IMG/VR virus record: IMGVR_UViG_3300002026_000072
Coordinates: 1-64,000 of that record
Length of the DNA: 64,000 bases
Strand: one strand, 5' to 3'
Origin: a virus
Position numbers and translations under genes: made by a program. Under the pieces are notes generated by a model. That model was not told where the DNA came from. It made no database searches and saw only the letters and a program-made list of their open reading frames with translations. This document shows positions 1,549-59,768 of this stretch, piece by piece. Position 1 is the stretch's first letter. Each line of letters opens with the position of its first letter.

Positions 1549-1575
1549 ATCTAAGTTCGATCCGACTTAGAATCC
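1549..1575. promoter_or_regulatory. Phage-specific palindrome motif copy (atctaagttcgat + ccgacttagaatcc)
   Basis: Matches ATC(T/G)AA(C/G)TT(A/C)GAT. Lies in an intergenic gap 26 nt upstream of the 1601 ATG. Confidence 0.6.
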
Positions 1576-1600
1576 AACCAGTTCTTTATAGGAGCCCATC

Positions 1601-2008
1601 ATGGCGAATGCTCTCTACGGCAAAGGCAAGGAGAAGTTCCTCTCCGGTGCCATCAATCTCGTCTCCGACACGATCAAGCTGGCGCTCGTCAGCAGCGCGT
1701 ACTCGCCCACGATGGCGTCCGACGAGTTCTTCTCGACGATCTCCGCCTACGTCTTGAACACGCCCCAGACTCTGGGCGCCAAGACGGTCACGCTCGGGGT
1801 CTTCGACAATACGGTCGATCCGACGTTCACAGCAGTGTCGGCGGGCTCCACGGCGAAGGCTGTGGTGATCTACAAGGACACTGGCGTGGTCGGCACGAGC
1901 CCGCTGATCGCCTACATCGACACCATCACTGGGTTCCCGCTCGCCACGAACGGCGGCGACATCCAGATCGTGTTCGACAGCGGGGCGTACAAGATCTTCT
2001 CGCTCTAA
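1601..2008 (+). CDS. hypothetical structural protein (135 aa)
   Basis: taggagcccatcATG ribosome-binding site. Preceded by the motif-containing gap. Clean coding bias. Confidence 0.8.
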   Translation: MANALYGKGKEKFLSGAINLVSDTIKLALVSSAYSPTMASDEFFSTISAYVLNTPQTLGAKTVTLGVFDNTVDPTFTAVSAGSTAKAVVIYKDTGVVGTSPLIAYIDTITGFPLATNGGDIQIVFDSGAYKIFSL

Positions 2009-2026
2009 CCTGCGCAGGAGTAGGTC

Positions 2027-3340
2027 GTGGCTACGGTCTACGTTCAGGACAGGTTCAGAGGGTCGGGCAATCTCGTCGGCTCCTACCCTGACGCCTACGC
2101 GGCAGGGCTTGGGGCATGGGGAGGTTCGGCCACAACAGAAGTAGTCCGCACAGCAAGCGGTATCACGCTGGCTGGCGGATCGGGACCGGTATCTGCCACC
2201 CTCACAGACGGCACAACCACGCTCGGCACGGGCGTGTTTGTCGTGGAGGTGGATACGCGCGGACCCTGCACTCTTGCGGTGCTGATGGATGCGGGCGGGG
2301 CCAATTACCAAGCCACGATCGACCGCATGAATGCGACTCTCGACCCCATCTACGATGAGGGCGGGAGCTCTGGAAATATCGGGGGCGAACTTCTATCGGG
2401 TGGGGATGTCGGGTGGGGCGGCTCAATCGTTCTGCGGGTTGAGATCACCACCACGACGTTCAAAGCGTTCGCACGCGGGGTGCAGCTCGGGTCCACTTGG
2501 ACATGGACTACGCCGCTTACCACGTCGTCACCGATTACCGTCGCCGGGCTGCTGTTCAACGAGTACACCGCATCGACTGCACTCACGGCGGCCTACATCC
2601 ACGCCGTCCGCGAGACCACATCCGGTGCGCTCGGCGAGCCGATAGGCACCGTCTACCCCGCAACGTCGATCGACCCGACCACCGCGTTCGGCACACCTAC
2701 TGCGCCGCCCATCGCCCTGACGGTCGCACCTACCGCCGAGTTCGGTCTACCCCGCGCCGCTGTGGCTTACGGAGCGACAGCGGTCGCGCCGGAGACGCAG
2801 TTCGGCACCGGTGCGCTCACACTCAACACGGCACGCGCCGCAGCCACGATCGAGCCAACCATCCTGTTCGGCTCGACCGCCGCAGCAGCGGGGTTCATCC
2901 TCACCTTGCCGGGCTATGCGGAGTGGATCGCGCCGACGACTCAGTTCGGCAGGCCAGCGATAACGAAGGCGCTCCACGCAGACGCGACGGGCTGGGCGTC
3001 GAGCAACGTGCCCGCGCCGATGGTCCGACTACCCTCAGTGGCCTCCGGCTTCGTATCGGGGGGCATGGGCGAGCATGGGCTGTTCGCGGCGCAGAACGCG
3101 ACGGGATTCAGGGGCACGACGTTCGGCGCGGTATCGAGTCTCATCCTGGTCAGTGCGGCGGGCATGTGTCGTACACAACTCGGCGTGCTTTCTTCGCAGT
3201 GCCGCGGATCGTTCGAGGCGAACTCGCTGATGGACACGACCTTCGGCACCCCTGATGCAACAAAGAATACCCAGCGCCTGCGGGGCAACTTGTTCCGCAC
3301 CTCCTTCGGCCGGGCACAAGCCGAGAGGACCGCCCCATGA
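2027..3340 (+). CDS. tail-associated protein (437 aa), function unknown
   Basis: GTG start after aggagtaggtc. C-terminal half has repeated xxTxFGxP units (TAFGTPTA, AEFGLPRA, TQFGTGAL, ILFGSTAA, TQFGRPAI). Stop overlaps the next start (ATGA). Confidence 0.7.
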   Translation: MATVYVQDRFRGSGNLVGSYPDAYAAGLGAWGGSATTEVVRTASGITLAGGSGPVSATLTDGTTTLGTGVFVVEVDTRGPCTLAVLMDAGGANYQATIDRMNATLDPIYDEGGSSGNIGGELLSGGDVGWGGSIVLRVEITTTTFKAFARGVQLGSTWTWTTPLTTSSPITVAGLLFNEYTASTALTAAYIHAVRETTSGALGEPIGTVYPATSIDPTTAFGTPTAPPIALTVAPTAEFGLPRAAVAYGATAVAPETQFGTGALTLNTARAAATIEPTILFGSTAAAAGFILTLPGYAEWIAPTTQFGRPAITKALHADATGWASSNVPAPMVRLPSVASGFVSGGMGEHGLFAAQNATGFRGTTFGAVSSLILVSAAGMCRTQLGVLSSQCRGSFEANSLMDTTFGTPDATKNTQRLRGNLFRTSFGRAQAERTAP

Positions 3341-4461
3341 AGCTCCAGAAGTTCCTCGGCATCAACAACGTCGCCGACCGCACGCGGCTGGCTGACGGCG
3401 AGATGCTGACGGCGACGAACGTCGACATCGGCAGTACCGGCAACGTACTCAGTAGGCGCGGGCGCACGCTGCTGCGCGCTGGTTCCGCGCACTCTCTGTT
3501 CGAGTCGCCGTTCGGCACCTTCGCCGTGATCAACAGCGACCTCGTCCTACTCAACGCGGCCGGCGCGCTGCTGCGCACGGTCTACCCGACCCTCGGGTAC
3601 ACACGCGTCTGGTACACCCTGCTGGCCGACGGGCGCGTGGCGTTCTCGAACGGGTACATCAACGGGCTGGCGACAGCGACCACAACGACGGAGTGGGGAA
3701 TCAAGGCACCGGAGTCCGTAGGCTATGCGGCGAGCGGTACGACGATGTACGCCCTCACGCACGTCCGGCTGAGCGACGGCCTCGAAGGCCCGGCGATCTA
3801 CGGCCCGCCCAGCGACCTGAGCAGCCTTACCGGTCTGCCCGTGCGCGAGGGGTTCTCGATAAACATCTACACCGCCCCCTACGGCGAGGAACTGTTCCTG
3901 GCCGGCAACACTACGACAGACACCGCTGCGATTGGGAGCCCCGGTGTAGCGTACCTCGGGGCCGGGCTGGCTGAGCCGCCCGTCGGCACACAGCTCACAA
4001 CCTGGCTCTCGCGGGTGCTGATCGTCGAGGGCAGCACGCTCTGGGCCACGCGCCCGTTCCAGCCGGAGATGATCGACCTGACACGTGACTTCGTCCAGAT
4101 GCCGCGCGACATCACCCTCGTGTACGGCACCAACAGTGGCGTGTTCATCGGCACGTCCGAAGGGATCACGTGGCTCGACGGCACGTCCGTGGCGGAGTGG
4201 AAGAGCCAGCCCATCGCAACGGGCGCAGTCACGCTCGGCTCCGCGGTCGAGATCCCGCTCGGATACCTGCAGAAAGAGGTCCGCCCAAGCGGGTTGCTCC
4301 AGGGCGCACTGTGTCTGGTCGGCGGGGTCGTTCACCTCATCTACGGGAACGGGCAGATCCTGGCGCTGACCAGCCACAAGTACAAGATGGACGCGACCGA
4401 GGTAATCGCGACTGCGCGGGTACGTGACGGGGTCATGCAGTACCTTGCAGCACCGGTGTGA
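3337..4461 (+). CDS. tail-associated protein (374 aa)
   Basis: ATGA overlap with the upstream gene and GTGA overlap with the downstream gene. Strand-rich composition suggests a beta-rich fold. Confidence 0.75.
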   Translation: MKLQKFLGINNVADRTRLADGEMLTATNVDIGSTGNVLSRRGRTLLRAGSAHSLFESPFGTFAVINSDLVLLNAAGALLRTVYPTLGYTRVWYTLLADGRVAFSNGYINGLATATTTTEWGIKAPESVGYAASGTTMYALTHVRLSDGLEGPAIYGPPSDLSSLTGLPVREGFSINIYTAPYGEELFLAGNTTTDTAAIGSPGVAYLGAGLAEPPVGTQLTTWLSRVLIVEGSTLWATRPFQPEMIDLTRDFVQMPRDITLVYGTNSGVFIGTSEGITWLDGTSVAEWKSQPIATGAVTLGSAVEIPLGYLQKEVRPSGLLQGALCLVGGVVHLIYGNGQILALTSHKYKMDATEVIATARVRDGVMQYLAAPV

Positions 4462-6503
4462 AGGACTATTACTTCCACGACCGCGACGGCAACCCCCTGA
4501 CGGGGAAGGTGCCGGTTGCGCTCCACGTGTTCGGCGACGGCGACCAGCAGGCCGCGGTGGCTGAGGCGTCGATCGAGCTCCAGACGTTCCTCATGGATGT
4601 GCAGCTGAGCTCGGCGCCCTACCACCGCAGAGACGTCAGGCTCCTGAACGGGCAGGCGCAGTTCCAGGCCAATCACGGCGAGATTCGCGTCGACGTCTTC
4701 GCTGAGCCGGCAGGCCAGCCCTCACCGACCTTCTACGGCGGCATCCTCCTGAAGATCAACGTGGTCGAGGACGAAGAAGCCTACATGGCGAACGCGCGGC
4801 ATGGGCTCATGACGGTGCCGAACACCGGCGATCTCTGGCCACAAATAAACGACTCATCGGAGCTCGACGACACGGTGGCGAAGATGGAGCGGTATGGGCG
4901 TCACGAGCTCAAGCTCGTTCCGTCCTGCGTCAAGTTCAGCGGCGAGGACGACGAGCACCCTGGCCGGCCCGCGGTCCCTGGCACCCCGGATGGAGCGCTG
5001 ACTGAGTGGCTGATCATCCAGATTGCTCGGGACAGAGACCTGACTGATGAGCCAATCAGGAACGGCGCGATCAAGATCTACCGCATTCACGAACCCAAGT
5101 TTGGCGACATCATCGAGCTGAAGTACTACGACGACGAGTACTTGCTGTCGACCAAGCTCGTGAACGTCGAGGAAGTAGGCGACACCGCCCCTGAGTTCTA
5201 TATGTGCGGGCAGGTAGTTCAGTCGATTCCACCGATGAACTTCGCGGTCAACGAAAGCGGGCTCGGGACGGACGATACCTACAGCCCGAAGAACGCCGGC
5301 AGCGCCCTGCGCACTTTTAACTTTGCCCCGGTGTCGTTTGAAACTGCGGGGGAAAGCGCGAAGGGCATCGTCATCTTCGCAATCGCGGATCAACTCTGGG
5401 CGTGCAACTCAGCTGCTGAAACTCCCGAGTGGTCGCTCCTGGACACCGGAACACGCCCCAGCAGAAACCCCAATCAATACGGGAGGGATTTCACGGAAAG
5501 CATCAGTCCGTCGGGCGTCGCGACAATTACTTGCTCCGGCACAAACGGTGCGGGGGACTGCAGTGGGTTCGTCGTCACTATCACCCCCCAAGAGAACGCC
5601 CCCGCCGTGATAACGGGAAAAATCACTTTGGCGCCGACTGGCGACACCAGCTGGGCGTTTCCAGTCGTCGACGAGTGGAGAGCCAACGGGGCAAACACGA
5701 TCGGGCAAACCCAGATCGAATACACGTACACGAACACATACAAGTTCTGGGTGTGGCCGGGGCAATACGAGACCGACCCGCCAGAGATGATTACGCAGAC
5801 TTACGACGAGATTCACACTTACCCCAGCGACGGGACGGATTCGTCCACTATCACACACGTGATCTACAGTGACAGTGGGTCGGAGACTGTAGATAGATTC
5901 CTGGGCGGGGTGGAAAGATACCAAGCGCTCGTGAACTCCACAAAGGGTAGGACGGTCCGCACTACTAAACAGAACTCGACACTCACTCCAGTCCCGAGCC
6001 CGGACCCTCCGGTTGGGTACACGAGCAGCACATGGTCGCCAGAATTGACATGGGAGACAGAGTATTCGGTGCAGGGGTACTCTGGGGTTGGGACGTTCTC
6101 GTACTACCTCTTTACTGGGATGGAGGAGCCTACCGTATCTGTCACGTCCTATCTCTCTGGCGGAGCATTCGACGAACCCTCGGTACACAAGCACATCTAC
6201 ACCGCACGCGACACGCACACGCGCCAGCTTGCTCTGCGCATCGACCAGGGCAGATCCGGCTCGACGGGATACACGGACATGGTCACAGGAAACATAGGCG
6301 CGGCGGTGGGGACAGTCCAGGCATATCTGCACTACAACTTCAACGCTTGGCGGCTCGACCACAAGCTCTTGCGTCCAGACGGCTCCGTCGTCATCGCGTG
6401 GAATAACGTACCTGCCATGTTCCCGCCCGCAGTGGAGGCCGCCGCGTCAGCCATTCACTGGCAGGAGTTTGTCTCCTACAACATCCCCGGCACGACGATT
6501 TAA
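4458..6503 (+). CDS. large tail or receptor-binding candidate (681 aa)
   Basis: GTG start coupled to the upstream TGA. The central and C-terminal part (~4850-6250) is visibly lower in GC than its neighbours. Confidence 0.75.
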   Translation: MKDYYFHDRDGNPLTGKVPVALHVFGDGDQQAAVAEASIELQTFLMDVQLSSAPYHRRDVRLLNGQAQFQANHGEIRVDVFAEPAGQPSPTFYGGILLKINVVEDEEAYMANARHGLMTVPNTGDLWPQINDSSELDDTVAKMERYGRHELKLVPSCVKFSGEDDEHPGRPAVPGTPDGALTEWLIIQIARDRDLTDEPIRNGAIKIYRIHEPKFGDIIELKYYDDEYLLSTKLVNVEEVGDTAPEFYMCGQVVQSIPPMNFAVNESGLGTDDTYSPKNAGSALRTFNFAPVSFETAGESAKGIVIFAIADQLWACNSAAETPEWSLLDTGTRPSRNPNQYGRDFTESISPSGVATITCSGTNGAGDCSGFVVTITPQENAPAVITGKITLAPTGDTSWAFPVVDEWRANGANTIGQTQIEYTYTNTYKFWVWPGQYETDPPEMITQTYDEIHTYPSDGTDSSTITHVIYSDSGSETVDRFLGGVERYQALVNSTKGRTVRTTKQNSTLTPVPSPDPPVGYTSSTWSPELTWETEYSVQGYSGVGTFSYYLFTGMEEPTVSVTSYLSGGAFDEPSVHKHIYTARDTHTRQLALRIDQGRSGSTGYTDMVTGNIGAAVGTVQAYLHYNFNAWRLDHKLLRPDGSVVIAWNNVPAMFPPAVEAAASAIHWQEFVSYNIPGTTI

Positions 6504-6524
6504 CTCGACACGGAGCGCTGAGCT

Positions 6525-6869
6525 ATGGACTTCCCTAGTAACCGAGGTGGCGACACCATCTGCAAACTCGACGACCGCGTCTACTTCGACCCGCGTACCG
6601 GCGGTTTTGTTGTGCAGATGCTCTGGGTTGCGGGTGAACGTACCAGCAGGGATACTACGGACGTCAATGCTCCGTGGGAAAGCATCATCGCTTTCCCCCT
6701 GGTGTGCGAGACCTACGTCGGGAACAACCTCGGCCACGTACCGCTCAAGGACGTGCTCAATGAGTGGATGGAGCTGGGCGCCACCCACGGCACGCTGGGT
6801 CAGCTCCCGCTCTCATTCAACAAAGTCTTCATCGACGATAGGGTCGCGCTCGACGCGATGTTGATATGA
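6525..6869 (+). CDS. hypothetical protein (114 aa)
   Basis: ATG 21 nt after the upstream stop. Stop overlaps the next ATG (ATGA at 6866). Confidence 0.7.
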   Translation: MDFPSNRGGDTICKLDDRVYFDPRTGGFVVQMLWVAGERTSRDTTDVNAPWESIIAFPLVCETYVGNNLGHVPLKDVLNEWMELGATHGTLGQLPLSFNKVFIDDRVALDAMLI

Positions 6870-7303
6870 ACACGCTCGTCCTCAATCTTGAAAACCTTGC
6901 GGCCACTGAGTACACCACGCCCTTCACCGGGCTGGCTGGTAACTACGAGGCGACCGCGACCGGCGTGTATGCCGCAGGCGGAACCGAAGACGACGGCGTG
7001 GCGTTTGCGTCGGGCATCTCTTTCGGCATGAAGCTGACGGGCAGCGCCCGCAAGCAGCACCCACGCTACCTCTACATCTACCACACAGGCGAGCCGGTGC
7101 TGACCGCCACGATCACAGACAGCGGCGGCGTCTCTCACAGCTACGACGAGGCCCACCGCACTGACCGCGCAGGGAGGTTCACCCTCGGCCGCGGCTTCAG
7201 GGACAACTATCTCGCTGTCGGGCTGACGTCCGACGGCAGCGATGCGTTTGCAATCGACAAGATCGAGTTCGACGCCGACGTCTCAGCCAACCGGAGAATC
7301 TGA
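6866..7303 (+). CDS. hypothetical virion protein (145 aa)
   Basis: Translationally coupled at both ends. Confidence 0.7.
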   Translation: MNTLVLNLENLAATEYTTPFTGLAGNYEATATGVYAAGGTEDDGVAFASGISFGMKLTGSARKQHPRYLYIYHTGEPVLTATITDSGGVSHSYDEAHRTDRAGRFTLGRGFRDNYLAVGLTSDGSDAFAIDKIEFDADVSANRRI

Positions 7304-9144
7304 TGGCTTTCCAACAAGTTGAAGGGCTGTTCAACAGCGCGCAGAACTACGCGAACAACGCGGGCACGGCAGCGAACGGCTTCATTATCGCCCTCGGAAG
7401 TGCGCTAAGCGGCATCGTCCTGCCACCGATGCCGGTGAACACAGCAGCGCCGCCGGCACCCACACCGCCGACCCAGGTCACGATCACAGTGCCGGCGGTG
7501 GCGACGGAGATCTCGAATTACGAGGGTGGCGATACGCCAGAGAAGCCCGACGTGACTGTGGACCGCTCGGGGGCGCCGGCACAACCAGCCTACGCCACCA
7601 ACGTCTATGTGCCAGGGGCGGCGCCACCGCAGCCCACGTTCGACGGCAGTCTGATGGACCTCACGTACTGGAGGCCCACAGTGGGGGCATGGACGTCGCC
7701 CACGCCGCCCACCCTTCTAGAGCTGTCGATCTTGCCGTTTGAGGGGGTCAACACGCACGAGGATTTTCTGTCCAGCATCGAGAAGCCGAAGGAACTCACG
7801 GTCACGCCGCCGACACAGTACACCTACGTGAAGGAGTCCAAATACGTATCAGCGCTGATAGACGCGATCAACAACAACATTCGAGCTCGTCTGAACGGAG
7901 ACAGTGCGCTCCCGCCCGAAGTCGAGGAGGTGATCTGGTCCCGCGGACGTAGCCGCGAGACCGCCATCTGGGCCGCAGCCGCTGCGGAGGTCATCCACAA
8001 CGCCGAAGCTCGGGGATTCTCGCTGCCGACCGGCGCGCTGGCCGCGCAGACCCGCGAAGCACTGAAGGCAGCGTCTGTGAAGACCTCCGAGGTGAACCGC
8101 GACATCATGGTCAAGCAAGCTGAGACTGCGCAGGCCAATGCAAGGCACGCCATCGAGCAGGGCATCGCCCTGGAGTCGCGCCTGATTGAGCACGCAAACA
8201 ACATGGAGCAGCGCACATTCGACGCCGCGAAGTATCTGGCTGAGAACATGATCGAGATCTACAACGCCCGGGTCGGCGCGTACAAAGCACAGATGGATCT
8301 GTACACGGCGGGAGTCACCGCATATCGCGGACTGATAGACGCCGAGCGCGCCAAGGTTGACGCGTACCAAGCCACAGTTAGCGCAGAGCGAGCGAAGGCC
8401 GACATCAACCAAGCGAACGTCGCTGTCTACAGCGCTCAGTTGCAGGCGCGAGAGACGGTGGTCAAAGCGTACGCGGCGGAGATCGAAGCCATGCAGGCTA
8501 TGCTCGCTGCGGACAAACTGCAGGTCGAGATATTCGGCGAACAGATCAAGGCGTACGTCGCCACCATCGGCTCAGAGACTGCGCGGGTCGAAGTGTTCAA
8601 GGCAAAGACCGACGCCAACAAAACTCTGGCGGAGTCCTACCGCGCGGAGGTCGAGGCATACGCAACGGGGGTGCAGGCCCAGGTCGCTACCGCGAAGGCC
8701 AACGCCGAAATCTACGACGCCGTGATGCGCGGGCACGTGTCGCAAGTCCAGGCATACGCAGCCCGAGTCGGCGCTGAGGCAGAAATGGTGCGCGCAGAGG
8801 TCCAGGTCGCCGGGCTGGAAGTGGAGGCGGGCAAAGCGCAGATCAGCCAGAACATCGCCCAGGCGCAAGTAAATGCTGAGCACTTCAAAGCGATGGTCTC
8901 GCTCTACGAGTCGAACAAGTCGCTTGCTCTGCAGCAGGCGAAGATCGTCGGGGATCAGTTCTTCACGATGCGCAGCATGATCGCAGACCAAGCGAAGGTC
9001 GGCGCACAGGTCAACTCTCAGCTTGCAGCGTCGGCCTACGGCACGATCCGGGCGTCGGCCGGGATCAGCGGCACGTCCTCGGATTCGACGCAGTGGAGCT
9101 ACACCGGCAGGACGAGCAACACGAGCGCCTCGCCGTATTCGTGA
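7303..9144 (+). CDS. coiled-coil internal virion or ejection-type protein (613 aa)
   Basis: Pro-rich N-terminal third. Then about 350 aa of Ala/Glu/Gln heptad-like sequence (AERAKVDAYQATVSAERAKADINQ...). First of three large consecutive virion ORFs. Confidence 0.7.
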   Translation: MAFQQVEGLFNSAQNYANNAGTAANGFIIALGSALSGIVLPPMPVNTAAPPAPTPPTQVTITVPAVATEISNYEGGDTPEKPDVTVDRSGAPAQPAYATNVYVPGAAPPQPTFDGSLMDLTYWRPTVGAWTSPTPPTLLELSILPFEGVNTHEDFLSSIEKPKELTVTPPTQYTYVKESKYVSALIDAINNNIRARLNGDSALPPEVEEVIWSRGRSRETAIWAAAAAEVIHNAEARGFSLPTGALAAQTREALKAASVKTSEVNRDIMVKQAETAQANARHAIEQGIALESRLIEHANNMEQRTFDAAKYLAENMIEIYNARVGAYKAQMDLYTAGVTAYRGLIDAERAKVDAYQATVSAERAKADINQANVAVYSAQLQARETVVKAYAAEIEAMQAMLAADKLQVEIFGEQIKAYVATIGSETARVEVFKAKTDANKTLAESYRAEVEAYATGVQAQVATAKANAEIYDAVMRGHVSQVQAYAARVGAEAEMVRAEVQVAGLEVEAGKAQISQNIAQAQVNAEHFKAMVSLYESNKSLALQQAKIVGDQFFTMRSMIADQAKVGAQVNSQLAASAYGTIRASAGISGTSSDSTQWSYTGRTSNTSASPYS

Positions 9145-9160
9145 TCCGCCGACATTTACA

Positions 9161-9178
9161 ATCTAACTTAGATCGAAC
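9161..9178. promoter_or_regulatory. Palindrome motif copy (atctaacttagatcgaac)
   Basis: Intergenic, 11 nt upstream of the 9190 ATG and immediately 5' of the aggag RBS. Confidence 0.6.
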
Positions 9179-9189
9179 AGGAGCCGCGT

Positions 9190-11661
9190 ATGACCCCCGA
9201 ACAAGAAGCAGCACTCAAAGCAGCACGCGAGGCGAAGGCCGCAGCTCCCACCATGCGGGCCACCGCCGGCACGATGGGCGGGTTCGGCCCGCAGAGCGCA
9301 TACACACCACCGCAGCCCGCGGCCGGTCCGTCTGGGCCGCAGAGCGCGTACATGTCGCCCGGCCAGCAGGCGCCGAGTCAAATGCCGCCGCACCCGATGA
9401 ACCCCAAGCCGACGATCGGCAACATGGGGCCGGTGCCACCGTCTTCGATGCCTGCCGGGCCGGCGAGCGTGTACCCGAAGCCCACAGTCGCGACGATGCA
9501 GGCGCCGCCTCCGTCTTCGATGCCCGCAGGGCCGTCGAGCCCCTACATGCCGAAGCCGGAAGGGCCGTCGAGCCGGGTTATCAACGTGCCGCCGTCGTCC
9601 ATGCCTGCGGGGCCGTCGAGCCCGTACGACGGCGCCAACGGCCGCCCACGCAGCATGAGCAACGCCGCCGCGATGGGGCCGAACGCCGGCCCCGTGTACC
9701 AGTCCGTCCCCCGCAGGATCTTCAACGCAGCGGCCGAGGCGGTGCGAAACCCCGGGGCGATAGGGAAGGCGGCGATCGACGCTGCTGCGACCCCGGTCGG
9801 CGCCGCCACGATCCGCGCGGGCATGAGCGGCGCAGCCGCTATCCCCGACGCACTGGCGACGGGAAAGGTGCTCGACGCCCACATACGGGCCGGCTCGCCG
9901 ATTCAGGACACTGTCGTCGACACCGCCACCCAGGCGGCGGAGGGCGTCGGCAAACTCGGCATGGCCGGCGCCGGAGCTCTCGGCGGGGCCAAGCTCGGAG
10001 CTGCCGCAGGAACAATGCTTGCAGGGCCCCCCGGGACCATCATCGGCGGCGCCCTCGGCGGAGTTGTCGGAGGGGCGGCTGGGTACTTCTCAGCTGACGA
10101 GGGCATCAAGGGACTGCGGCAAGGGTTCGGCGTCACTGAAGCCTCGCCCGTCGACCGTTTGCCTACCCCCATCACCGCGGAAGCTGCGGCACAGGCCCGA
10201 GCGAACAAGACCGCTGAGACCTACGCCCGGCTGGGCATGAAGGAGCCTGCAGTCGGCGGTGGGGCAGGGCGCGGCGAGACCGGAGGCGACCCCCGCAAGA
10301 TCACCATGGAGGGCGGGTTCCCGCTTGAGCGCTACCTCGCTGGCTACGGCGAGGACGGCAGAGCGTTTGACCCGACGAGCGGGCGCGGTGGCGGCATCAA
10401 CAACCGCCTACCGACGGACCTGTCGATGCTGCAAGCGGGCGAGGTCTACAAGACCCAGGACCCGATCACTGGGCGCACGATCTACAGCGGGCGGGACGTC
10501 AAAGAGAACGCTGGCATCCGCGACGCCTGGAACGTAAAAACTGGGCAGCTGACGAACACCCCGAACGGCAACAACTTCATCCAGAACTACGACGCGAGCG
10601 GCAAGCCGGTCGCGTCGGCGAACCCGCTGCTCTCCACCGAGCCGAGTAAGGGCGGCATGAGAGAGATGGGCCTCGACCAGCAGCTCTCGGCCGCACGTCA
10701 GGCAGCAGCGGCTCGTGGCGACTTCGCGGCCCTCGACCAGTCCTACGGCAAGGCGCCCGCCGGAGTGTCCGGTGGTGGCGCCATCGCCGGCGGCTTCGGT
10801 GGCGGCAAGAGCTCCTGGCAGCAGGGCATCGACGACCGCAACGCCTCGTTCGAGCGCGACAAGATCATGCGCACGCCGGGCCTGTCGCCCTACGACGCTG
10901 CCCAGCTCGCGAACCAGTTCGACGACCGCCAGCAGCGCATGCGGGAAGCGACGATGCGTGACGAGACATCCCGCTACGGTGCAGACCTCGGTGCCAGCAC
11001 CAGCCGCTACGGCACAGACACGAACGCCGGCATCCATCGCGAGCACAACCAGATCCAGCGCGAGAACAACCAGATCACGCGCCAGATCGCTGCTGGGCAG
11101 CGCGACTACCAGCGCTACAAGGACAACATCGAGCTGGGCATGAAGGAGCGGGAGTACCAAGCAGAGCGCGGTGACAAGGACCTCTCGAACCGGCAGGCGG
11201 CCGAAGGCGCGCTGCAGAAGCAGCTGGAGTCGCGGTTCACGACATCAGGGATCACCGGCGACAAGGTCGACACCGCAGCCGTCGCGAGATACCGCCAAGG
11301 CATCGACCGCTCTGTTGCCCGCATCCCGGGCGCGAGGGGCGTGCACGATCTGGGGCCGCGCGCCACAGAGCAGCTCATCGCGGCAAGCGACCTGCTGGAG
11401 ACGCTGCGCGCTGACGGCAGCAACCTGAACCCGTTCAAGCCGGACTTCCTGAAGACCGTCGACCCGATCGACCTCATCGGTATCCAGCACGACCCGAAGA
11501 ACGACAACTACGTGATCACGAACCCCAAGAGCCGGGCGTACAAGCAAGTGATCCCGGGGCGGTATCTCAGGACTGAAGAAGCGAATCGCATCGAGTTTGG
11601 TGGCATGCGCGGCACGCCGACCAACAAGTACGACATGCTACAGATGGGATCAGGCCAATGA
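9190..11661 (+). CDS. Pro/Gly-rich internal virion or ejection-type protein (823 aa)
   Basis: Three PPSSMPAGPSSPY repeats, a Gly/Ala hydrophobic stretch and a Q/R-rich C-terminus. ATGA coupling to the giant ORF. Confidence 0.7.
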   Translation: MTPEQEAALKAAREAKAAAPTMRATAGTMGGFGPQSAYTPPQPAAGPSGPQSAYMSPGQQAPSQMPPHPMNPKPTIGNMGPVPPSSMPAGPASVYPKPTVATMQAPPPSSMPAGPSSPYMPKPEGPSSRVINVPPSSMPAGPSSPYDGANGRPRSMSNAAAMGPNAGPVYQSVPRRIFNAAAEAVRNPGAIGKAAIDAAATPVGAATIRAGMSGAAAIPDALATGKVLDAHIRAGSPIQDTVVDTATQAAEGVGKLGMAGAGALGGAKLGAAAGTMLAGPPGTIIGGALGGVVGGAAGYFSADEGIKGLRQGFGVTEASPVDRLPTPITAEAAAQARANKTAETYARLGMKEPAVGGGAGRGETGGDPRKITMEGGFPLERYLAGYGEDGRAFDPTSGRGGGINNRLPTDLSMLQAGEVYKTQDPITGRTIYSGRDVKENAGIRDAWNVKTGQLTNTPNGNNFIQNYDASGKPVASANPLLSTEPSKGGMREMGLDQQLSAARQAAAARGDFAALDQSYGKAPAGVSGGGAIAGGFGGGKSSWQQGIDDRNASFERDKIMRTPGLSPYDAAQLANQFDDRQQRMREATMRDETSRYGADLGASTSRYGTDTNAGIHREHNQIQRENNQITRQIAAGQRDYQRYKDNIELGMKEREYQAERGDKDLSNRQAAEGALQKQLESRFTTSGITGDKVDTAAVARYRQGIDRSVARIPGARGVHDLGPRATEQLIAASDLLETLRADGSNLNPFKPDFLKTVDPIDLIGIQHDPKNDNYVITNPKSRAYKQVIPGRYLRTEEANRIEFGGMRGTPTNKYDMLQMGSGQ

Positions 11662-19746: not shown

Positions 19747-19760
19747 GATCTACGTTCGAT
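19747..19760. promoter_or_regulatory. degenerate palindrome motif copy (gatctacgttcgat)
   Basis: Both half-sites are present but the centre is 2 nt. Confidence 0.3.
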
Positions 19761-25690: not shown

Positions 25691-25703
25691 ATCTAAGTTC
25701 GAT
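25691..25703. promoter_or_regulatory. Palindrome motif copy (atctaagttcgat)
   Basis: Ends 3 nt from the 25687 start codon on the - strand. Confidence 0.6.
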
Positions 25704-25729: not shown

Positions 25730-26104
25730 TCAGCGTTGTTTGATGGTGATCGACCAGTCCTTCAACGTGATCGTGACCACGTTGTCTTCTTCACTGATCT
25801 CGATGTTGGGCTTGCTCAGGAGTGCAGCAACGGCTTGATCCATCGTGGGCTTGGGTGGGGCAGGGCGGTTCTTCCACACGTACATCCAGCGTGCGCGATT
25901 GTTGTCGCCCTTGGGTGCAGGGAGGCGCAGGACGAGGCCCTTGCGCCACAGGTTGCCCAGATAGTCAGAGACGCGGTTTACGCCACTGGCGTGCGCCTTG
26001 ACTCCAGGCAAGTCGAACAGCATGTTGCAGTCCATCGGTTCAGTTGCTTTTTTCAGTTCGGTCTCCAGAGCGCCGAACAAACCATCTTCGGGTCTGATGC
26101 CCAT
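25730..26104 (-). CDS. hypothetical protein (124 aa), possible winged-helix
   Basis: ccaaggagacagacATG ribosome-binding site. Confidence 0.7.
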   Translation of the reverse strand: MGIRPEDGLFGALETELKKATEPMDCNMLFDLPGVKAHASGVNRVSDYLGNLWRKGLVLRLPAPKGDNNRARWMYVWKNRPAPPKPTMDQAVAALLSKPNIEISEEDNVVTITLKDWSITIKQR

Positions 26105-28995: not shown

Positions 28996-29020
28996 GGTGG
29001 ATGTAGATCCGATCGAAGTT

Positions 29021-29034
29021 AGATTACAGAGAGC
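29021..29034. promoter_or_regulatory. Palindrome motif copy (gatcgaagttagat)
   Basis: About 25 nt upstream of the 28995 start. Confidence 0.6.
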
Positions 29035-35884: not shown

Positions 35885-35898
35885 GATCGAACTTAGAT
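35885..35898. promoter_or_regulatory. Palindrome motif copy (gatcgaacttagat)
   Basis: 17 nt upstream of the 35867 start. Confidence 0.6.
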
Positions 35899-44931: not shown

Positions 44932-44946
44932 GATCGAAGTTCGATC
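44932..44946. promoter_or_regulatory. Palindrome motif copy (gatcgaagttcgatc)
   Basis: 30 nt upstream of the 44901 ATG. Confidence 0.6.
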
Positions 44947-48057: not shown

Positions 48058-48190
48058 TGGTGGATAAGCATCCTTATCTCCCGAAGCGGAAACGGAATCC
48101 GAACCCGGTACGTCGAATGACGACCGGGTGATAAGAGCCTCACGAGGCTGGATCTGCAAAATTTTTTGCCAAAATTTCTGTGTCGAAATT

Positions 48191-48208
48191 CGACCTACCT
48201 TAGAATCC
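48191..48208. promoter_or_regulatory. Motif half-site copy (cgacctaccttagaatcc)
   Basis: Resembles 1562-1575. Lies 8 nt upstream of the terS ATG. Confidence 0.45.
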
Positions 48209-48887: not shown

Positions 48888-50356
48888 CTCAAAACCCCCA
48901 AAGTCGCCCAAAACTGACCCCCAAAGCCCTCGCAGTTCAGCGTGAGCTGGCCGCTCGTGTCCTCGCTCGACGCCGTCTGATCCCGTTCACGCAGCGCATC
49001 AACCCCCGGTACATGGCCGGATGGGTCCACGAGGACATTGCGCGCCGCCTGGAGCGCTTCAGCGACGACGTCGCCAAGGGCCTGAGCCCCAGGCTCCTCG
49101 GGCGCCACCCAGACCACGAGATCATCGCCTGCTCGTACAACGTGAGCCTCGCCATGACCTTCAGCCGCAAGGTGAAGGACACGATCAACGACCCGGTCTA
49201 TCAGACGGTGTTCGACGCGCGGTTGAATCCAGATCACCAGAGTGCCGAGGAGTGGGGCGTGCAGGGGAGTCCGGGCGGCTACGTCGCCGCCGGCGTGGGT
49301 GGCGGTATCACGGGCAAGGGCTGTTTCTGCCTACTTATTGACGATCCGATCAAGAACGCTGAGGACGCTGACAGCGCAGACATCCGCGAGAAGTTGTGGG
49401 ACTGGTACGGCTCGACCGCCTACACGCGTCTTGCCCCCGGCGGGGGCGTACTTTTGATACAGACCAGCTGGCACGATGATGACCTCGCCGGCCGGCTGCA
49501 GATGGCCATGAAGGCAGACCCCGACGCGGACCAATTTGAAATAGTCAAGTACCCAGCCGTCGCTGAACATGACGAGTGGCTCGACCTCACCACGGACCAG
49601 ATCGTGCCCAAGGATGACCTGGAGGAGGGGTTCGAGGTCAAGCTGAACCGGATCAAGAAGACGATCCCGCCGCGGTTCTGGAGCGCCCTGTACCAGCAGA
49701 ACCCGGTGCCTGACGACGGCGCGTACTTCACGAAGGACCAGTTCAAGCGCACCCCAACGCCCAACGTCAAGCGGTGCAACGTCTATATCGCGTGGGACTT
49801 CGCGATCAGTGAGAAGAAGCAGAACGACTACACGGTCGGCACCGTCGGGCTGCAGGACGACGACGACATGCTGCACGTCGCGGAGGTACTGCGCTTCAAG
49901 TCCGGTGATATTTTCTTCATCGTGGAATCTATCTTGAATCTAAGTTCGAGGTGGTACAGTCCGCACCTGATATTGGGCTTTGAGGACGGGCAGATTTTCC
50001 GGGCTATCGAATCACTGCTGAAGCGCCGCATGCGCGAGCGGAGGGTCTACCCGGTCATCGAGGTGCTCAAGCCCCTCACCGACAAGATGGCACGGGCACG
50101 GGTCCTCCAGGGACGGATGCAGCAGGGCATGGTCAGCTTCAGCGACAAAGGCGAGTGGTTCGACACGGTCAGGGCGGAGATGCTGCGCTTCCCCGCCGGC
50201 GTCCACGACGACTGCGTTGACTCCGCCGCCTGGATGGCCGCCCTGGTCGTGAACCGCCCGCCGCCCGCCAAGCTCAAGAGCAAAGACCTCGGCTCCTGGC
50301 GCGACAAGCTCCGGGTTTCGCCCCACGTAGGCGGGGCAACACACATGGCGGCCTGA
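48884..50356 (+). CDS. terL: terminase large subunit, apparently lacking the Walker-A segment
   Basis: GGGITGKGCFCLLIDDP (Walker B region), TSWHDDDLAG, ALYQQNP, and nuclease-domain WDFA...VHDDCVD. The expected (I/L)xxPPRxxKS block between SPRLL and GRHPD (49091-49114) is absent. Confidence 0.85.
   Translation: MTQNPQSRPKLTPKALAVQRELAARVLARRRLIPFTQRINPRYMAGWVHEDIARRLERFSDDVAKGLSPRLLGRHPDHEIIACSYNVSLAMTFSRKVKDTINDPVYQTVFDARLNPDHQSAEEWGVQGSPGGYVAAGVGGGITGKGCFCLLIDDPIKNAEDADSADIREKLWDWYGSTAYTRLAPGGGVLLIQTSWHDDDLAGRLQMAMKADPDADQFEIVKYPAVAEHDEWLDLTTDQIVPKDDLEEGFEVKLNRIKKTIPPRFWSALYQQNPVPDDGAYFTKDQFKRTPTPNVKRCNVYIAWDFAISEKKQNDYTVGTVGLQDDDDMLHVAEVLRFKSGDIFFIVESILNLSSRWYSPHLILGFEDGQIFRAIESLLKRRMRERRVYPVIEVLKPLTDKMARARVLQGRMQQGMVSFSDKGEWFDTVRAEMLRFPAGVHDDCVDSAAWMAALVVNRPPPAKLKSKDLGSWRDKLRVSPHVGGATHMAA
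49937..49949. promoter_or_regulatory. Palindrome motif copy embedded in terL coding sequence (aatctaagttcga)
   Basis: Exact 13-mer match to 1548-1560. Encodes NLSS. Confidence 0.5.
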
Positions 50357-54086: not shown

Positions 54087-54104
54087 CCGTTGGGGAACGG
54101 CTTT

Positions 54105-54135
54105 GGGTCGGCTTTGTGCCGGCCCTCTTTTCTTC
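54105..54135 (+). terminator. rho-independent terminator after the scaffold gene
   Basis: gggtcggc-tttgt-gccggccc followed by tcttttcttc. Confidence 0.65.
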
Positions 54136-54138
54136 TGG

Positions 54139-54161
54139 TCTAACTTAGAGTAGAGTTCGAC
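54139..54161. promoter_or_regulatory. Palindrome motif copy (tctaacttagag + tagagttcgac)
   Basis: Directly after the terminator, 117 nt upstream of the capsid ATG. Confidence 0.55.
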
Positions 54162-54277
54162 CCAATCCGGTTAAGGCAAGGTCCCGACAGCACCTTCCAC
54201 CCTTCGCAGGTCGTGGCGACACACGGCAAGGCGCCCATCACGGGCATTCGTCTTGTCATCTGTGAAGGAGAGCCGTC

Positions 54278-55399
54278 ATGGCACTCACTAATTTTGGCCT
54301 GCTCACGTCTGAACAGAAGACGGTATGGAGCATGGATTTGTGGCGCCAAGCGCGCAACCAGTCGTTCCTCAACCGCTTCATGGGCAAAGGCCCGAACAGC
54401 CTGATTCAGCACATCACCGAGCTGAAGAAGACCGAGAAGGGCGCCCGCGCAGTCATCACGCTGCTGGCCGACCTGCAGGGCGACGGCGTTGCCGGCGACC
54501 GCACCTTGGAAGGCAACGAAGAGGCGATGCAGACCTTTGATCAGGTCATCCGCATCGACCAGATTCGCCACGCCAACCGGCATGAAGGCCGCATGGCCGA
54601 CCAGAAGAGCATCGTCGAATTCCGTGGCAACAGCCGCGACGTTCTGGCGTACTGGCTCGCTGACCGCATCGACCAGATGGCGTTCCTGACGCTCTCCGGC
54701 GTGCCGTACACGAACTTCAACACGGGCTACGCCCGCACCGGGTCTGACTTGTCCAGCCTGGAGTTCGCCGCTGACGTCACTGCACCGACGGCTAACCGCC
54801 GCCTGCGCTGGGATGGCACGAGCGCCACCAAGAAGCTCATCACCAACGCCGCCACGAGCGACGTGGTTGCGACGGACACCCCCACCTGGGAGATGTTCGT
54901 GCAGCTCAAGGCGTTCGCCAAGGAGCGCTATGTGCGCGGCATCAAGGAAGACGGCGGCGAGGAGACTTACCACGCCTTCCTGTCGCCTTCGGCCATGGCC
55001 AAGCTGAAGCTCGACCCGAGCTACATGCAGAACCTGCGCTACTCGTCCCAGACGAGCAAGAACGAGGCTCTGTTCAGCGGCTCCAGCGTCAAGGTCGACG
55101 GCATCTACCTGCACGAGTTCCGCCACGTCTACAACACCCGTAACGCTGTCAGCGGCACGGGCAAGTGGGGCGCCGGCAACCTCGTCGACGGATGCCAGAT
55201 GCTGTTCTGCGGCGCGCAAGCTCTGGGCATGGCCGACATCGGCGCACCCGAGTGGGTCGAGAAGGAGTTCGACTACGGCAACCAGCAGGGTATCTCGGTT
55301 GGCAAGATCCTCGGGTTCAAGAAGCCTGTCTTCAAGAACATCTACGAGGCGGGCGCGACCGAGGACTTCGGCGTGATCTCTGTCTACGTTGCCCAGTAA
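54278..55399 (+). CDS. major capsid protein (N4-gp56-type by recollection)
   Basis: gaaggagagccgtcATG. 373 aa. N-terminal pattern LLTSEQKTVWSMDLWRQARNQSFLNRFMGKG...DLQGDGVAGDRTLEGNEE. Confidence 0.85.
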   Translation: MALTNFGLLTSEQKTVWSMDLWRQARNQSFLNRFMGKGPNSLIQHITELKKTEKGARAVITLLADLQGDGVAGDRTLEGNEEAMQTFDQVIRIDQIRHANRHEGRMADQKSIVEFRGNSRDVLAYWLADRIDQMAFLTLSGVPYTNFNTGYARTGSDLSSLEFAADVTAPTANRRLRWDGTSATKKLITNAATSDVVATDTPTWEMFVQLKAFAKERYVRGIKEDGGEETYHAFLSPSAMAKLKLDPSYMQNLRYSSQTSKNEALFSGSSVKVDGIYLHEFRHVYNTRNAVSGTGKWGAGNLVDGCQMLFCGAQALGMADIGAPEWVEKEFDYGNQQGISVGKILGFKKPVFKNIYEAGATEDFGVISVYVAQ

Positions 55400-55411
55400 T
55401 CTAACTTAGAT
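55399..55411. promoter_or_regulatory. Palindrome motif copy (atctaacttagat)
   Basis: Overlaps the capsid TAA. Lies 5' of the ggag RBS of the 55425 gene. Confidence 0.6.
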
Positions 55412-58219: not shown

Positions 58220-58716
58220 CGACCTACCTTGTCGCCGGCCTCACCCTGCTGGCCGCAGTCATCAGCGCCTGGGCGACCCTGCACTTTGCCCAGCAGGAGC
58301 GCGATGCCCTGCGTGCAGAACTGACCGTGGCCCGCGCCACATGGGCAGCAGCCTCACAGGCAAGCGATGAGCGGCAACGCGAGATTGAACGACTCAGAAC
58401 CAAGGCGGTTGACCATGTCGCATCTAACGCCAAAGCCGACGCCTCTCAGGATGAGCGCCGCATTGCTGAGCTTCGCGCTACTGCTGACAGGCTGCGCGCA
58501 CACATCAAGCTCCTTGCCGCCAGTACCCGTGCGAGCAGCAGCGATACCACCACTGCCACCGGAGGCGAAGCAGCCACCGGCCCCGGCTTGGTGCTTGCCG
58601 ACCTGTACCGAGGCGTTGACGATGAGGCGATTGAACTCGCTGCAGCGCTTGACGCATCCAGACGTGCGGGGCTTACCTGCGAACGAATCTACGACGCAAC
58701 CAGGGATACCCAATGA
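58216..58716 (+). CDS. i-spanin (Rz-like)
   Basis: N-terminal TM TTYLVAGLTLLAAVISAW, then a coiled-coil periplasmic domain. ATGA overlap with the endolysin stop. Confidence 0.75.
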   Translation: MTTYLVAGLTLLAAVISAWATLHFAQQERDALRAELTVARATWAAASQASDERQREIERLRTKAVDHVASNAKADASQDERRIAELRATADRLRAHIKLLAASTRASSSDTTTATGGEAATGPGLVLADLYRGVDDEAIELAAALDASRRAGLTCERIYDATRDTQ

Positions 58717-58729: not shown

Positions 58730-59207
58730 CTGGGACGACTACGAACGTCGAGCAGAGGCCGCTTCGCCGCCTCCAGGCGACGGCAAGGGTGGATTCACGC
58801 TGGAACAGCTCTCATACCTTGAGTCCCGCATCAGCCGCGAGGTCACGGTGATCCACACGATGCTGCGCGCCCACGTATCCGACGAAAGCCGCCAACTCGA
58901 CCTGATCAAAGCCATGATCGACCGCAGCGCCGCAGCCAGCGAAGCCCGACATGAGATGCTGCTGCAGAAGCTGGCCGCATACCAGACCCGCACCGACTCA
59001 ATGGAGCAGGCGTTTTTGGACGGCCCAATGGGCCTGCCTGACTACCACGGCCACCACCAGGACCACAGCATCCGCGCAGCCACCGGCAAGTGGTGGAGCG
59101 GCGTCAAGTCCACCGTGGTGTCCGACGGCATCAAAGCAGCGCTCGGTGGCCTGATCGTGTGGCTGGCGATGATCGTCTATCAATCGTCGCAGGGAGTCGG
59201 GCCATGA
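58713..59207 (+). CDS. lysis-cassette protein with a C-terminal TM (164 aa)
   Basis: ATGA coupling at both ends. TM segment AALGGLIVWLAMIVY. Confidence 0.65.
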   Translation: MTTPTDWDDYERRAEAASPPPGDGKGGFTLEQLSYLESRISREVTVIHTMLRAHVSDESRQLDLIKAMIDRSAAASEARHEMLLQKLAAYQTRTDSMEQAFLDGPMGLPDYHGHHQDHSIRAATGKWWSGVKSTVVSDGIKAALGGLIVWLAMIVYQSSQGVGP

Positions 59208-59470
59208 GCGACGTTGACGACGCCCGCGCCAGCACGGCCAAGACGACCGACACGGCTACGCCAAAGATATTGGCCATCGTCATCACCTTGGGCTTCTTTG
59301 CCGTGCTGGCCTACCTGCTGGCCAACGGCAAACCAGAGGTCGGCGGCGACGTGCTGCTGGTGATGCTGGGCAGCCTGGGCACAGCCTGGACCCAGATCGT
59401 TGCCTATTTTTTCGGCAGCAGCGCAGGCAGCAAGGCCAAAACGGCGCTGCTGGCGAAGGCAGGCAAATGA
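59204..59470 (+). CDS. holin or pinholin candidate (88 aa, 2 TM)
   Basis: ILAIVITLGFFAVLAYLLA and VLLVMLGSLGTAWTQIVAYFF, with a charged C-terminus. Confidence 0.65.
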   Translation: MSDVDDARASTAKTTDTATPKILAIVITLGFFAVLAYLLANGKPEVGGDVLLVMLGSLGTAWTQIVAYFFGSSAGSKAKTALLAKAGK

Positions 59471-59473
59471 TCC

Positions 59474-59737
59474 ATGCGCAGCAACTGCCTGATCTGGGCG
59501 ATCCTCATGCACCGTAGGCGCGTGCTCAAGGGCCACGAGGGGTACTTGCTGCTGCGCTGGTCGCGCTGGGGGCCGTTCCCTCACGCGCTGTATGCAGAAC
59601 TCCGACGCACCGGCTCGCTGCGCTTAGTGAGCTACCGGCCCTCCACACCCAAACCTAAACCCGTACCGCCGCTGCTGTTCAGGGGCACGAGTCGTTGGGG
59701 CGACTTCGTAGACACGAAGCCTGATCGCTCGGCGTGA
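59474..59737 (+). CDS. hypothetical basic protein (87 aa)
   Basis: Full ORF. Confidence 0.55.
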   Translation: MRSNCLIWAILMHRRRVLKGHEGYLLLRWSRWGPFPHALYAELRRTGSLRLVSYRPSTPKPKPVPPLLFRGTSRWGDFVDTKPDRSA

Positions 59738-59738
59738 T

Positions 59739-59768
59739 AATCTAACGTCTAACTTAGATCTAACTAGG
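59739..59768. promoter_or_regulatory. Triple motif half-site array (aatctaacgtctaacttagatctaactagg)
   Basis: Fills the gap between 59737 and the RBS of the 59777 gene. Carries stop codons in several frames. Confidence 0.6.

Follow-up and report, generated by a model that had tools for sequence, protein, structure and literature searches.

The Streptomyces phage phiC31 reportedly carries conserved inverted repeats (CIRs) that are bound by its c repressor, and the boxes read by Fur, PerR and Zur are said to have a 7-1-7 layout. In IncP-1 plasmids a single global repressor, KorB, acts at OB, a 13-bp palindrome with a central G/C (OB = TTTAGCSGCTAAA). The sites of mycobacteriophage L5 and Cluster A are described as asymmetric, 13 bp long, bound by a monomer and orientation-dependent (Brown et al. 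1997, in PMC9283540), and silencing of the whole prophage is the role proposed there. T1-like phages, which are lytic, have 22-bp asymmetric intergenic repeats of unproven function (PMC4319613). The present analysis concerns a palindrome, ATCKAASTTMGAT, that recurs along a 64,000-nt stretch of viral DNA (IMG/VR record IMGVR_UViG_3300002026_000072, positions 1 to 64,000; hereafter the window). Judging from its sequence patterns, we read this motif, with moderate confidence, as the operator for a single dimeric DNA-binding protein of the phage, a regulator and probably a repressor, that acts at no fewer than 13 promoters.

The window holds nine exact copies of the motif (1549, 9161, 25691, 29012, 29473, 31534, 35886, 44933 and 55399), whereas 100 dinucleotide shuffles give an expectation of 0. 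If up to two mismatches are allowed, there are 18 matches against 1.5 expected, and a scan with a symmetrised 15-bp weight matrix (cut-off score >=12) finds 16 sites where 0.1-0.15 would be expected. The motif had first been listed in a sequence-only reading of this DNA, which located the copies at 1549, 9161, 25691, 29473 and 55399 correctly but misplaced several others by 1-9 nt: 29021, 35885 and 44932 become 29012, 35886 and 44933, and 40408, 54139 and 19747 become 40411 (one mismatch), 54138 (two mismatches) and 19748 (one mismatch). What was taken for a triple copy at 59739 is one core at 59747 with overlapping ATCTAAC half-sites on its flanks, and the supposed half-sites at 1562 and 48191 are CTTAGAATCC, which contains the -10-like hexamer TAGAAT; ahead of the one at 48191 stands a degenerate dyad, at 48182. 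Two copies had been overlooked, an exact one at 31534 and one with a single mismatch at 49938.

The sites are far from evenly placed. Non-coding DNA makes up only 5.0% of the window, yet it holds 12 of the 16 sites (binomial P=4e-13, curated gene map), so that the earlier impression of a motif lying in the few real gaps ahead of gene blocks, on both strands, is borne out. A thirteenth site, 31534, lies 31 nt 5' of an HNH endonuclease open reading frame (ORF) within the polymerase gene. Sites precede genes of the replication and recombination block on the (-) strand as well as genes of the structural block on the (+) strand, and every transcription unit has a strong site except that at 45.2-48.0 kb. 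The distances from site to start codon are 3, 13, 16, 16, 16, 17, 18, 31, 39, 53 and 127 nt, 7 of the 11 falling in the range of 13-31 nt, and at three sites (29012, 35886 and 55399) the motif runs into the stop codon with which the gene before it ends.

The full site is a 15-bp dyad of 7-1-7 geometry, G-ATC(T/G)AA-S-TT(A/C)GAT-C. It is in relatives of the phage that the flanks complete the dyad, +14 being occupied by C in 32 of 45 sites and -1 by G in 23 of 45. In the window the downstream C is present in 12 of 12 sites and the upstream G in 1 of 12, in part because a stop codon (TAA-TC) frequently occupies that flank. The half-sites ATCTAA and ATCGAA, the latter accounting for one third of all half-sites, combine freely, and many copies carry overlapping extra half-sites, as at 59739. 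Across 81 sites from the window and relatives, positions 4 and 10 vary independently, 37 pairs being complementary against 32 expected (chi-square p=0.47). Consequently, four of the nine exact window copies would have a mismatch in any hairpin.

This last point bears on the possibility that the motif works as an RNA or single-stranded DNA hairpin, whether for processing, as an operator of translation or as a promoter of the N4 type. A 5-bp stem with a 3-nt loop can indeed be drawn for the perfect copies, and the sites do stand just 5' of ribosome-binding sites. However, predicted stability is no better than that of shuffled sequence: folding of six copies as RNA gave 0 to -1.8 kcal/mol for five of them, none beat its shuffled counterpart, and the motif hairpin itself, where it formed at all, was worth only -1.2 kcal/mol. 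The weak folding is accompanied by no covariation of positions 4 and 10 and no kept pairing, such as an N4-type promoter would have; no Rfam family matches anywhere in the window, and no phage RNA polymerase gene was found. We therefore consider a hairpin highly improbable. Independent half-sites and the lack of a stable hairpin argue instead for a site in duplex DNA that would be read, half-site by half-site, by a symmetric dimer, and on this point the folding energies and the covariation analysis agree with the sequence-only reading. Several familiar elements were also considered and dropped, namely sigma-E-like GAACTT...TCTAA, IHF sites, LysR T-N11-A and Dam (GATC), the fixed features of which differ from the features conserved here.

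Since the phage has no RNA polymerase gene that we could find, its transcription would fall to a host polymerase of the sigma-70 type. Among 62 sites for which gene direction is unambiguous, TAnnAT lies over the left edge of the motif in 16 in the forward direction versus 3 in reverse (~2.2 expected), and TAnnnT comes right after the downstream C (from +15) in 11 forward versus 0 reverse (~0.4 expected); ATCGAA half-sites do not fit the TAnnnT pattern. In other words, the motif is tied to promoters that point the same way as the genes, and this in several registers, as is expected for an operator and not for a promoter element or for an activator site of fixed geometry. It had previously been judged too close to several ATGs for promoters, but the oriented -10-like hexamers overlap or directly follow the motif and some leaders are very short; several downstream genes have short leaders or none, as with TAGAAT-N9-ATG at 48201 and 31514. 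Nor does the motif itself look like a sigma-70 -35 or -10, being symmetric and having separate -10-like hexamers at several registers.

Such variation is seen at the major capsid gene. Upstream of it, nearly all relatives share a layout of intrinsic terminator, T-tract, -10-like hexamer (TACACT, TAGACT, TAGAGT, TATCAT or TAGAAT) and conserved leader of ~130 nt. In the window the motif stands directly 5' of the -10 (GTCTAACTTAGAG-TAGAGT); in six relatives (L031, L022, L044, L047, L002 and L026) it stands 3 nt 3' of the -10 (TAGAGT-TCG-ATCTAAC...); in many other relatives it is absent. Such variable geometry at a homologous promoter is the behaviour of an operator, not of a promoter element. Two further places show the motif next to conserved promoter-like sequence. 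Upstream of the small terminase gene a conserved TAGAAT or TAGACT lies 9-12 nt 5' of the ATG, without a ribosome-binding site, and the motif lies 2-7 nt further upstream. Inside the large terminase gene (49925-49965), rare AT-rich codons that many relatives share down to the nucleotide make up TTGAAT-N15-TGgTAyAGT, the spacer of which contains the motif; the copy at 49938 is maintained by means of such codons, the permitted central G-to-C producing an S to T change.

Two observations about these regions are worth recording in their own right. At 54087-54277 a terminator gives way directly to a -10-like hexamer and then to a leader of ~120-130 nt kept in nearly all relatives (...CGACAGCAnCTTCCA...TCGnnGGTCGnGACGAnACAnCGnCAA...); this leader has a fold z-score of -1.9 and is a candidate structured 5' untranslated region of the major capsid gene, and no Rfam family matches it. 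Upstream of the small terminase gene, at 48066-48130 and in relatives, there are a conserved GAATCCGAAC(C/G)CGGGTAC, GATAAG/CTTATC inverted repeats and AAAATTTT tracts, which may be packaging or regulatory signals.

The promoter arrangement also invites a reading in which the motif is an activator site or a promoter-specificity element, like the T4 MotA box or a MerR-type spacer operator. An early phage protein would then recruit host RNA polymerase to promoters without a -35 and switch on the delayed-early and late blocks in lytic growth. A good -10 with no recognisable -35 right after many sites (54138-TAGAGT, 1549-N6-TAGAAT, 48182-N6-TAGAAT) is consistent with this, as are GATC-TACACT or TACTCT in relatives and the dyad of L022/L109, which is central between TTGACC and TAGAAT where these are separated by a 19-bp spacer, an arrangement known from MerR-type promoters; moreover, the 45.2-48.0 kb block, which has no strong site, could be immediate-early, and in relatives its genes tend to be found together with the motif. 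Yet the geometry varies, the -10 being found at -9, -4, or +14 to +20 from the motif start, and copies that cover a -10 or a start site (the capsid-promoter copies in relatives and the TAnnAT-overlap class) cannot activate. The 19-bp spacer layout belongs to one relative only: a spacer of 19-20 bp occurs just in L022/L109, and elsewhere the -10 spacing is 0 to 7 nt and a -35 is not evident. Activation is thus an unlikely role for the motif.

Several copies are not obviously connected with a promoter, and these raise the question of whether the motif might be only a roadblock (a stoperator and nothing more) or a signal of another nature, such as a recombination boundary, a nicking or packaging signal, or a translational insulator built of stop codons. 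The intra-operon copies at 55399, 9161 and 40411 lie within a few bases of a ribosome-binding site, and no promoter is clearly recognisable at them. The copy at 55399, common to the window and L003, is an insertion with respect to most relatives, in which the stop codon abuts the ribosome-binding site, and the copy at 31534 came with the inserted HNH gene, because polA is uninterrupted in L169/L170; both suggest spread with gene cassettes. The sequence-only reading had raised the idea of a multi-frame stop, and TAA or TAG does occur in two of three frames of the motif when its variable positions are T on the left and A on the right. This fails to explain a conserved dyad of 13-15 bp, however, and ATCGAA half-sites carry no stop codon at all. 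The oriented enrichment of -10-like hexamers and the placement on conserved promoters would be unexpected for recombination, nicking or packaging, and symmetric half-sites that vary independently suggest recognition by a sequence-specific dimer. Taken together, roles of this sort seem to us very unlikely.

The polymerase gene just mentioned deserves a comment of its own. This family A DNA polymerase gene (30058-33123, (-) strand) is split by the HNH endonuclease ORF (30714-31502), which lies in a different frame; at ~30720-31600 the signal of GC content at third codon positions changes frame, and the polymerase frame is nevertheless open throughout. No group I intron was found in the interrupted region by Rfam match.

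To follow the motif beyond the window, we fetched 137 related loci (L numbers) from viral and genome collections via portal, helicase, primase and virion proteins. With at most one mismatch the motif is present in 46 of the 137, enumeration of perfect palindromes being too strict for use in relatives. In the first 80 loci, which together span 1.06 Mb, 43 copies were counted, against fewer than 2 expected by an estimate scaled from the window shuffles. Copies are shared at syntenic gaps next to the nuclease gene, the DUF7307 gene (both 5' and just 3' of it, in L083, L087, L085, L169/L170, L195 and L198), the primase, small terminase and capsid genes (the last in the six relatives named above), and also inside the large terminase gene. 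The search with background correction, extended from the window to relatives, thus found the motif enriched and kept in related phages. The motif is also lineage-specific. Among all IMG/VR contigs the exact 15-mer has 56 matches, of which 52 are single matches in unrelated contigs of 28-49% GC and are due to chance. Contigs of more than 60% GC contribute only four matches, all in relatives of this phage with 2-4 copies each. No copy is present in the lytic relative KPP25, nor in Acidovorax phage AP1 and MW202615 (33% GC), which share only head genes with the window. A literature search for the motif string returned nothing relevant, and papers on KPP25-like phages do not mention such a motif. 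KPP25 (L081/L082) has a different repeat of its own, TGTTACGAAATTTT, in partly inverted pairs clustered at 26396-26830 and 58259-58300.

This distribution bears on whether the dyad is read by a protein of the betaproteobacterial host, by which phage expression would be tied to host physiology, as in prophages that use LexA. Such a host regulator would fit with the finding of no canonical phage repressor and with the same motif in relatives that range from 55% to 67% GC. On the other hand, among GC-rich viral contigs the exact 15-mer is confined to this lineage, the unrelated Acidovorax phage AP1 lacks the motif, and motif presence follows a phage-encoded winged-helix gene. We know of no host regulator with this consensus, and we regard a host protein as an improbable reader of the site.

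As to which phage protein might bind, the helix-turn-helix (HTH) or winged HTH proteins proposed earlier (20320-20781, 41875-42120 and 42117-42386) turned out to have no homologue in motif-bearing relatives, although the same regions are covered there. The 153-aa HTH protein beside the integrase has no homologue in a collection of 5.8 billion proteins, and no Pfam or PHROG repressor family matched the HTH candidates or the other small early proteins. A winged-helix-like ORF at 40472-40888 was rejected as binder, no homologue of it being found in any motif-bearing relative.

The most suggestive candidate is a 124-aa protein encoded at 25730-26104, for which more than 170 metagenomic homologues exist at ~50-77% identity. 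Residues V45-G50 and W53-K55 of its helix NRVSDYLGnLWRKG are invariant. No Pfam or PHROG family matches it, Pfam Fur included, and it probably represents a new winged-helix family. An AlphaFold2 model built on 46 sequences (mean predicted local distance difference test score 76) has a canonical winged helix and a C-terminal beta domain, and the nearest PDB folds found by Foldseek are dimeric winged-helix repressors: BlaI-like Rv1846c, PerR/Fur/Zur, MarR and MepR. Wherever a homologue is encoded on a contig that we examined, the motif, strict or degenerate, is present at syntenic gaps. The strict motif accompanies the gene in L083, L087, L136, L137, L167-170, L195 and L198, and a degenerate form in L084, L196 and L197; in KPP25 and L086 the region is covered, the gene is absent and there is no copy of the motif. 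From its sequence and predicted structure, this protein is possibly the regulator, a proposal that we make tentatively.

A number of observations weigh against the operator reading or against this choice of regulator. The Foldseek matches are weak (E 3e-3 to 7e-2, template modelling score 0.43-0.46) and concern the N-terminal domain only. Shared ancestry confounds the co-occurrence of the winged-helix gene and the motif, for several sites belong to the very module, itself conserved, in which the gene lies, and it is the most distant relatives that lack the gene; the co-occurrence is a lead, not proof. Three other genes co-occur with the motif in relatives too, the ratios of positive to negative loci being 8:0 for 45219-46145, 14:2 for 46713-47156 and 7:0 for 47399-47644. 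No DNA-binding signature was found in the products of these three; the 308-aa protein of 45219-46145 has no PDB relative, and the 81-aa protein of 47399-47644 has two weak homologues only and no structural relative. No CI-, Cro-, ParB- or LexA-like domain was detected among the early proteins scanned, and no divergent switch region was found. Relatives contain 0-5 copies per ~20 kb, far below the window. Finally, a two-hexamer promoter scan of 1-20000 found none and -35 elements are largely unrecognisable, so the promoters are deduced from -10-like hexamers and conservation, and 55399, 25691 and 19748 have no convincing -10 nearby.

What the sequences establish is the site with its symmetry, enrichment, placement and conservation, along with its link to -10-like hexamers. 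That a protein binds the site, that its effect is repression and which protein it is are points that we infer. Transcription would proceed from many small promoters, one per gene block, and a regulator dimer would bind the 15-bp dyad at ~13-16 places. A dimer sitting on the -10, on the start site or in the spacer would keep the host RNA polymerase off the promoter at 54138, 1549, 48182, 49938, 9161, 35886, 44933 and 40411. Binding would be promoter-proximal without overlap at 29473, directly 5' of the -35-like TTGACA, and at 31534, 20 nt 5' of TAGAAT. At the three copies with no evident promoter (55399, 25691 and 19748) it might act as a roadblock or have no effect, and intra-operon copies just 5' of a ribosome-binding site could block elongation. 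Since the site is found in early and late blocks and the phage is capable of lysogeny, the most economical outcome would be that most of the prophage is repressed. The genes at 45.2-48.0 kb, many of which encode small membrane proteins, have no strong site and could stay expressed in the lysogen.

It is tempting to go one step further and to propose that the single winged-helix protein of 25730-26104 silences most of the 66-kb prophage through ~16 dyads that serve as operators and as elongation roadblocks; we put this forward as a rather unlikely combination. If it were true, it would be to our knowledge the first stoperator-like genome-wide system outside actinobacteriophages, and one with a symmetric site and a dimer. 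Should the operator model itself hold, a temperate podovirus-like phage of Betaproteobacteria would have a compact and readily testable regulon in which a single 15-bp site and a single small protein serve more than 12 promoters of early and late genes; genome-wide operator networks would not be peculiar to actinobacteriophages, and a widespread nameless protein family would gain a function. The sites mark transcription units in an otherwise unannotatable metagenomic genome, and the regulator and its site could be usable as an orthogonal repressor-operator module for GC-rich hosts. No general principle would be changed. The proposed system is of a kind already known from phages, met here in a phage group that is new for it.

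Table 1. Motif copies and selected genes of the window, with matching copies in related loci
Position	Strand	Feature or match	Context in the window	Copy in related loci
1549..1561	+	exact, ATCTAAGTTCGAT	39 nt 5' of ATG 1601; TAGAAT 1568-1573, 6 nt downstream	
9161..9173	+	exact, ATCTAACTTAGAT	16 nt 5' of ATG 9190; TACAAT (9157-9162) over left edge	
19748..19760	-	1 mismatch	adjoins bidirectional terminator 19716-19741 and attP-like tRNA fragment; no gene directly downstream	
21095-22084	-	integrase		
21952-22245	-	excisionase		
24792		coding copy, chance possible	ligase gene	
25691..25703	-	exact	between stop of winged-helix gene 25730-26104 (directly 3' of it) and start 25687 of 81-aa gene	L195 (10451), L198 (9501)
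25730..26104	-	candidate binder	124-aa winged-helix protein, unnamed family	
29012..29024	-	exact	over stop of 29024-29419; 16 nt 5' of ATG 28995	L169/L170, L195, L198
29473..29485	-	exact	TTGACA-N17-CATGAT directly after; 5' of DUF7307 gene 29024-29419	L083, L087, L085, L169, L198
31534..31546	-	exact	within polA-interrupting sequence; then TAGAAT-N9-ATG of HNH ORF 30714-31502	
35886..35898	-	exact	over stop of 35893-36480; 18 nt 5' of nuclease ATG 35867; TATCAT over left edge, TACTCT from +15	L104, L096, L083
40411..40423	-	1 mismatch	16 nt 5' of GTG 40394	
44933..44945	-	exact, full 15-bp symmetry, GATCGAAGTTCGATC	between AT-rich repeat and primase start 44901; TACGAT over left edge	L004, L104, L133
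46412		coding copy, chance possible	small acidic gene	
48182..48194	+	degenerate dyad, GTCGAAATTCGAC	5' of TAGAAT (48201-48206)-N9-ATG, small terminase gene	L022/L109, perfect (TTGACC-N19-TAGAAT)
49938..49950	+	1 mismatch	inside large terminase gene, in spacer of promoter-like TTGAAT...TGgTACAGT	L028, L133
54138..54150	+	2 mismatches	between terminator and -10 hexamer TAGAGT 54151-54156, conserved capsid-gene promoter	
55399..55411	+	exact	over capsid gene stop; 13 nt 5' of ATG 55425	L003
59739..59765	+	composite, ATCTAAC-GTCTAACTTAGAT-CTAAC, core 59747	17 nt 5' of ATG 59777; GATAAT just upstream	L055; degenerate in L003, L015

The 64-kb window represents the greater part of the genome of a temperate phage and has a GC content of ~62%; two proteins encoded in it are on record from a 66,384-bp contig. 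Structural genes, among them those for the small and large terminase, portal, major capsid and a 2,438-aa virion protein, run on the (+) strand from 48.2 kb to the window end and resume at the window start up to 19 kb. The replication and recombination genes run on the (-) strand from 48.0 kb down to 19.8 kb and encode a DUF5906/VapE-type primase/helicase, a MoxR-like ATPase, an SNF2 helicase, a PD-(D/E)XK nuclease, a family A DNA polymerase, an exonuclease, a ligase, an excisionase and an integrase. At ~19660-19710 lies an attP-like tRNA 3' fragment (...GGTTCGAGTCCAATCGCGCCTACCA), with a strong bidirectional terminator after it; the tRNA 3' end within 19655-19745 probably is attP, which would imply integration into a tRNA gene. 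Judged by integrase, excisionase and this attP-like fragment, the phage is temperate. Megablast of two large window pieces against 50,697 phage records returned no nucleotide match. Among isolates, the lytic Pseudomonas phages KPP25 and phiR18 come closest (capsid protein 65%, terminase 40% identical), and related prophages are found in Betaproteobacteria, namely Herminiimonas, Verminephrobacter, Polaromonas, Caldimonas, Uliginosibacterium and Zoogloeaceae.

Several other features of the genome came to light. An AT-rich element of ~170 bp with sub-repeats of the 'cttatac' type is present in two copies, 18992-19160 and 44978-45146, that are 91-96% identical and 25,986 bp apart. One copy lies directly 5' of the primase/helicase gene, where relatives have an AT-rich stretch at the equivalent position. 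By analogy with P4 ori/crr, the pair may be an origin and a second cis-acting replication site. A block of three (-) strand genes at 36973-40143, kept in most relatives, encodes a DUF2201 metallopeptidase/VWA-like protein, a DUF3150 protein and a MoxR-like AAA ATPase. At 47.2-48.0 kb, where the majority of products are predicted membrane proteins, a unit AAGAACACAA...GTGAGC-loop-GCTCAC, a hairpin, precedes three small genes (47236-47281, 47668-47713 and 48012-48057). Three tandem paralogous genes with glycine-rich ends (61828-62679, 62683-63546 and 63554 onward) and the first ORF of the window (1-1119), which has an alanine-rich periodic repeat of 60 nt (20 aa), probably encode tail fibre or spike proteins.

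By analogy, the proposed system resembles most closely in kind the CIRs and c repressor of phiC31 and the operators and stoperators of L5, and in site architecture KorB-OB and the 7-1-7 boxes of the Fur type. With the Fur and PerR boxes it shares the 15-bp 7-1-7 geometry and overlapping extra half-sites, and the model of the candidate binder looks most like a winged helix with a C-terminal dimerisation domain of this type, the match being weak and limited to the winged helix. The candidate binder has no sequence homology to these proteins, however, and PerR, Fur and Zur are matched by Foldseek at E ~1e-2 and a template modelling score of ~0.45. KorB-OB offers ~12 copies at varying promoter positions over a ~60-kb proteobacterial replicon, but the sequence differs, the replicon is a plasmid and not a phage, and KorB is of the ParB family, of which no member was detected among the early proteins scanned here.

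In phiC31, as here, a temperate phage has one inverted-repeat operator in many conserved intergenic copies genome-wide. Unlike the present sites, the CIRs are 17 bp long, unrelated in sequence, belong to a phage of an actinomycete host and lie mostly in the early region, whereas here structural genes have sites too. Homology to the c repressor was not seen among the early proteins, none of which matched a Pfam or PHROG repressor family. The likeness to L5 consists in more than 12 sites on both arms of a temperate phage, in promoters and short gaps and often at stop or start codons; the window has 16 sites, 12 of them non-coding, on both strands. The difference lies in the symmetry: L5 has an asymmetric site and a monomer, while the dyad core here has independent half-sites, no gp71 homologue was found, and orientation is seen only in the neighbouring -10 hexamers and apparently in the flanks. 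The start-associated sequences of Cluster K and the repeats of T1-like phages are asymmetric, and the Cluster K sequence includes the ribosome-binding site; what they have in common with the present motif is placement only, as short sequences in 10-20 copies immediately 5' of gene starts (PMC4319613).

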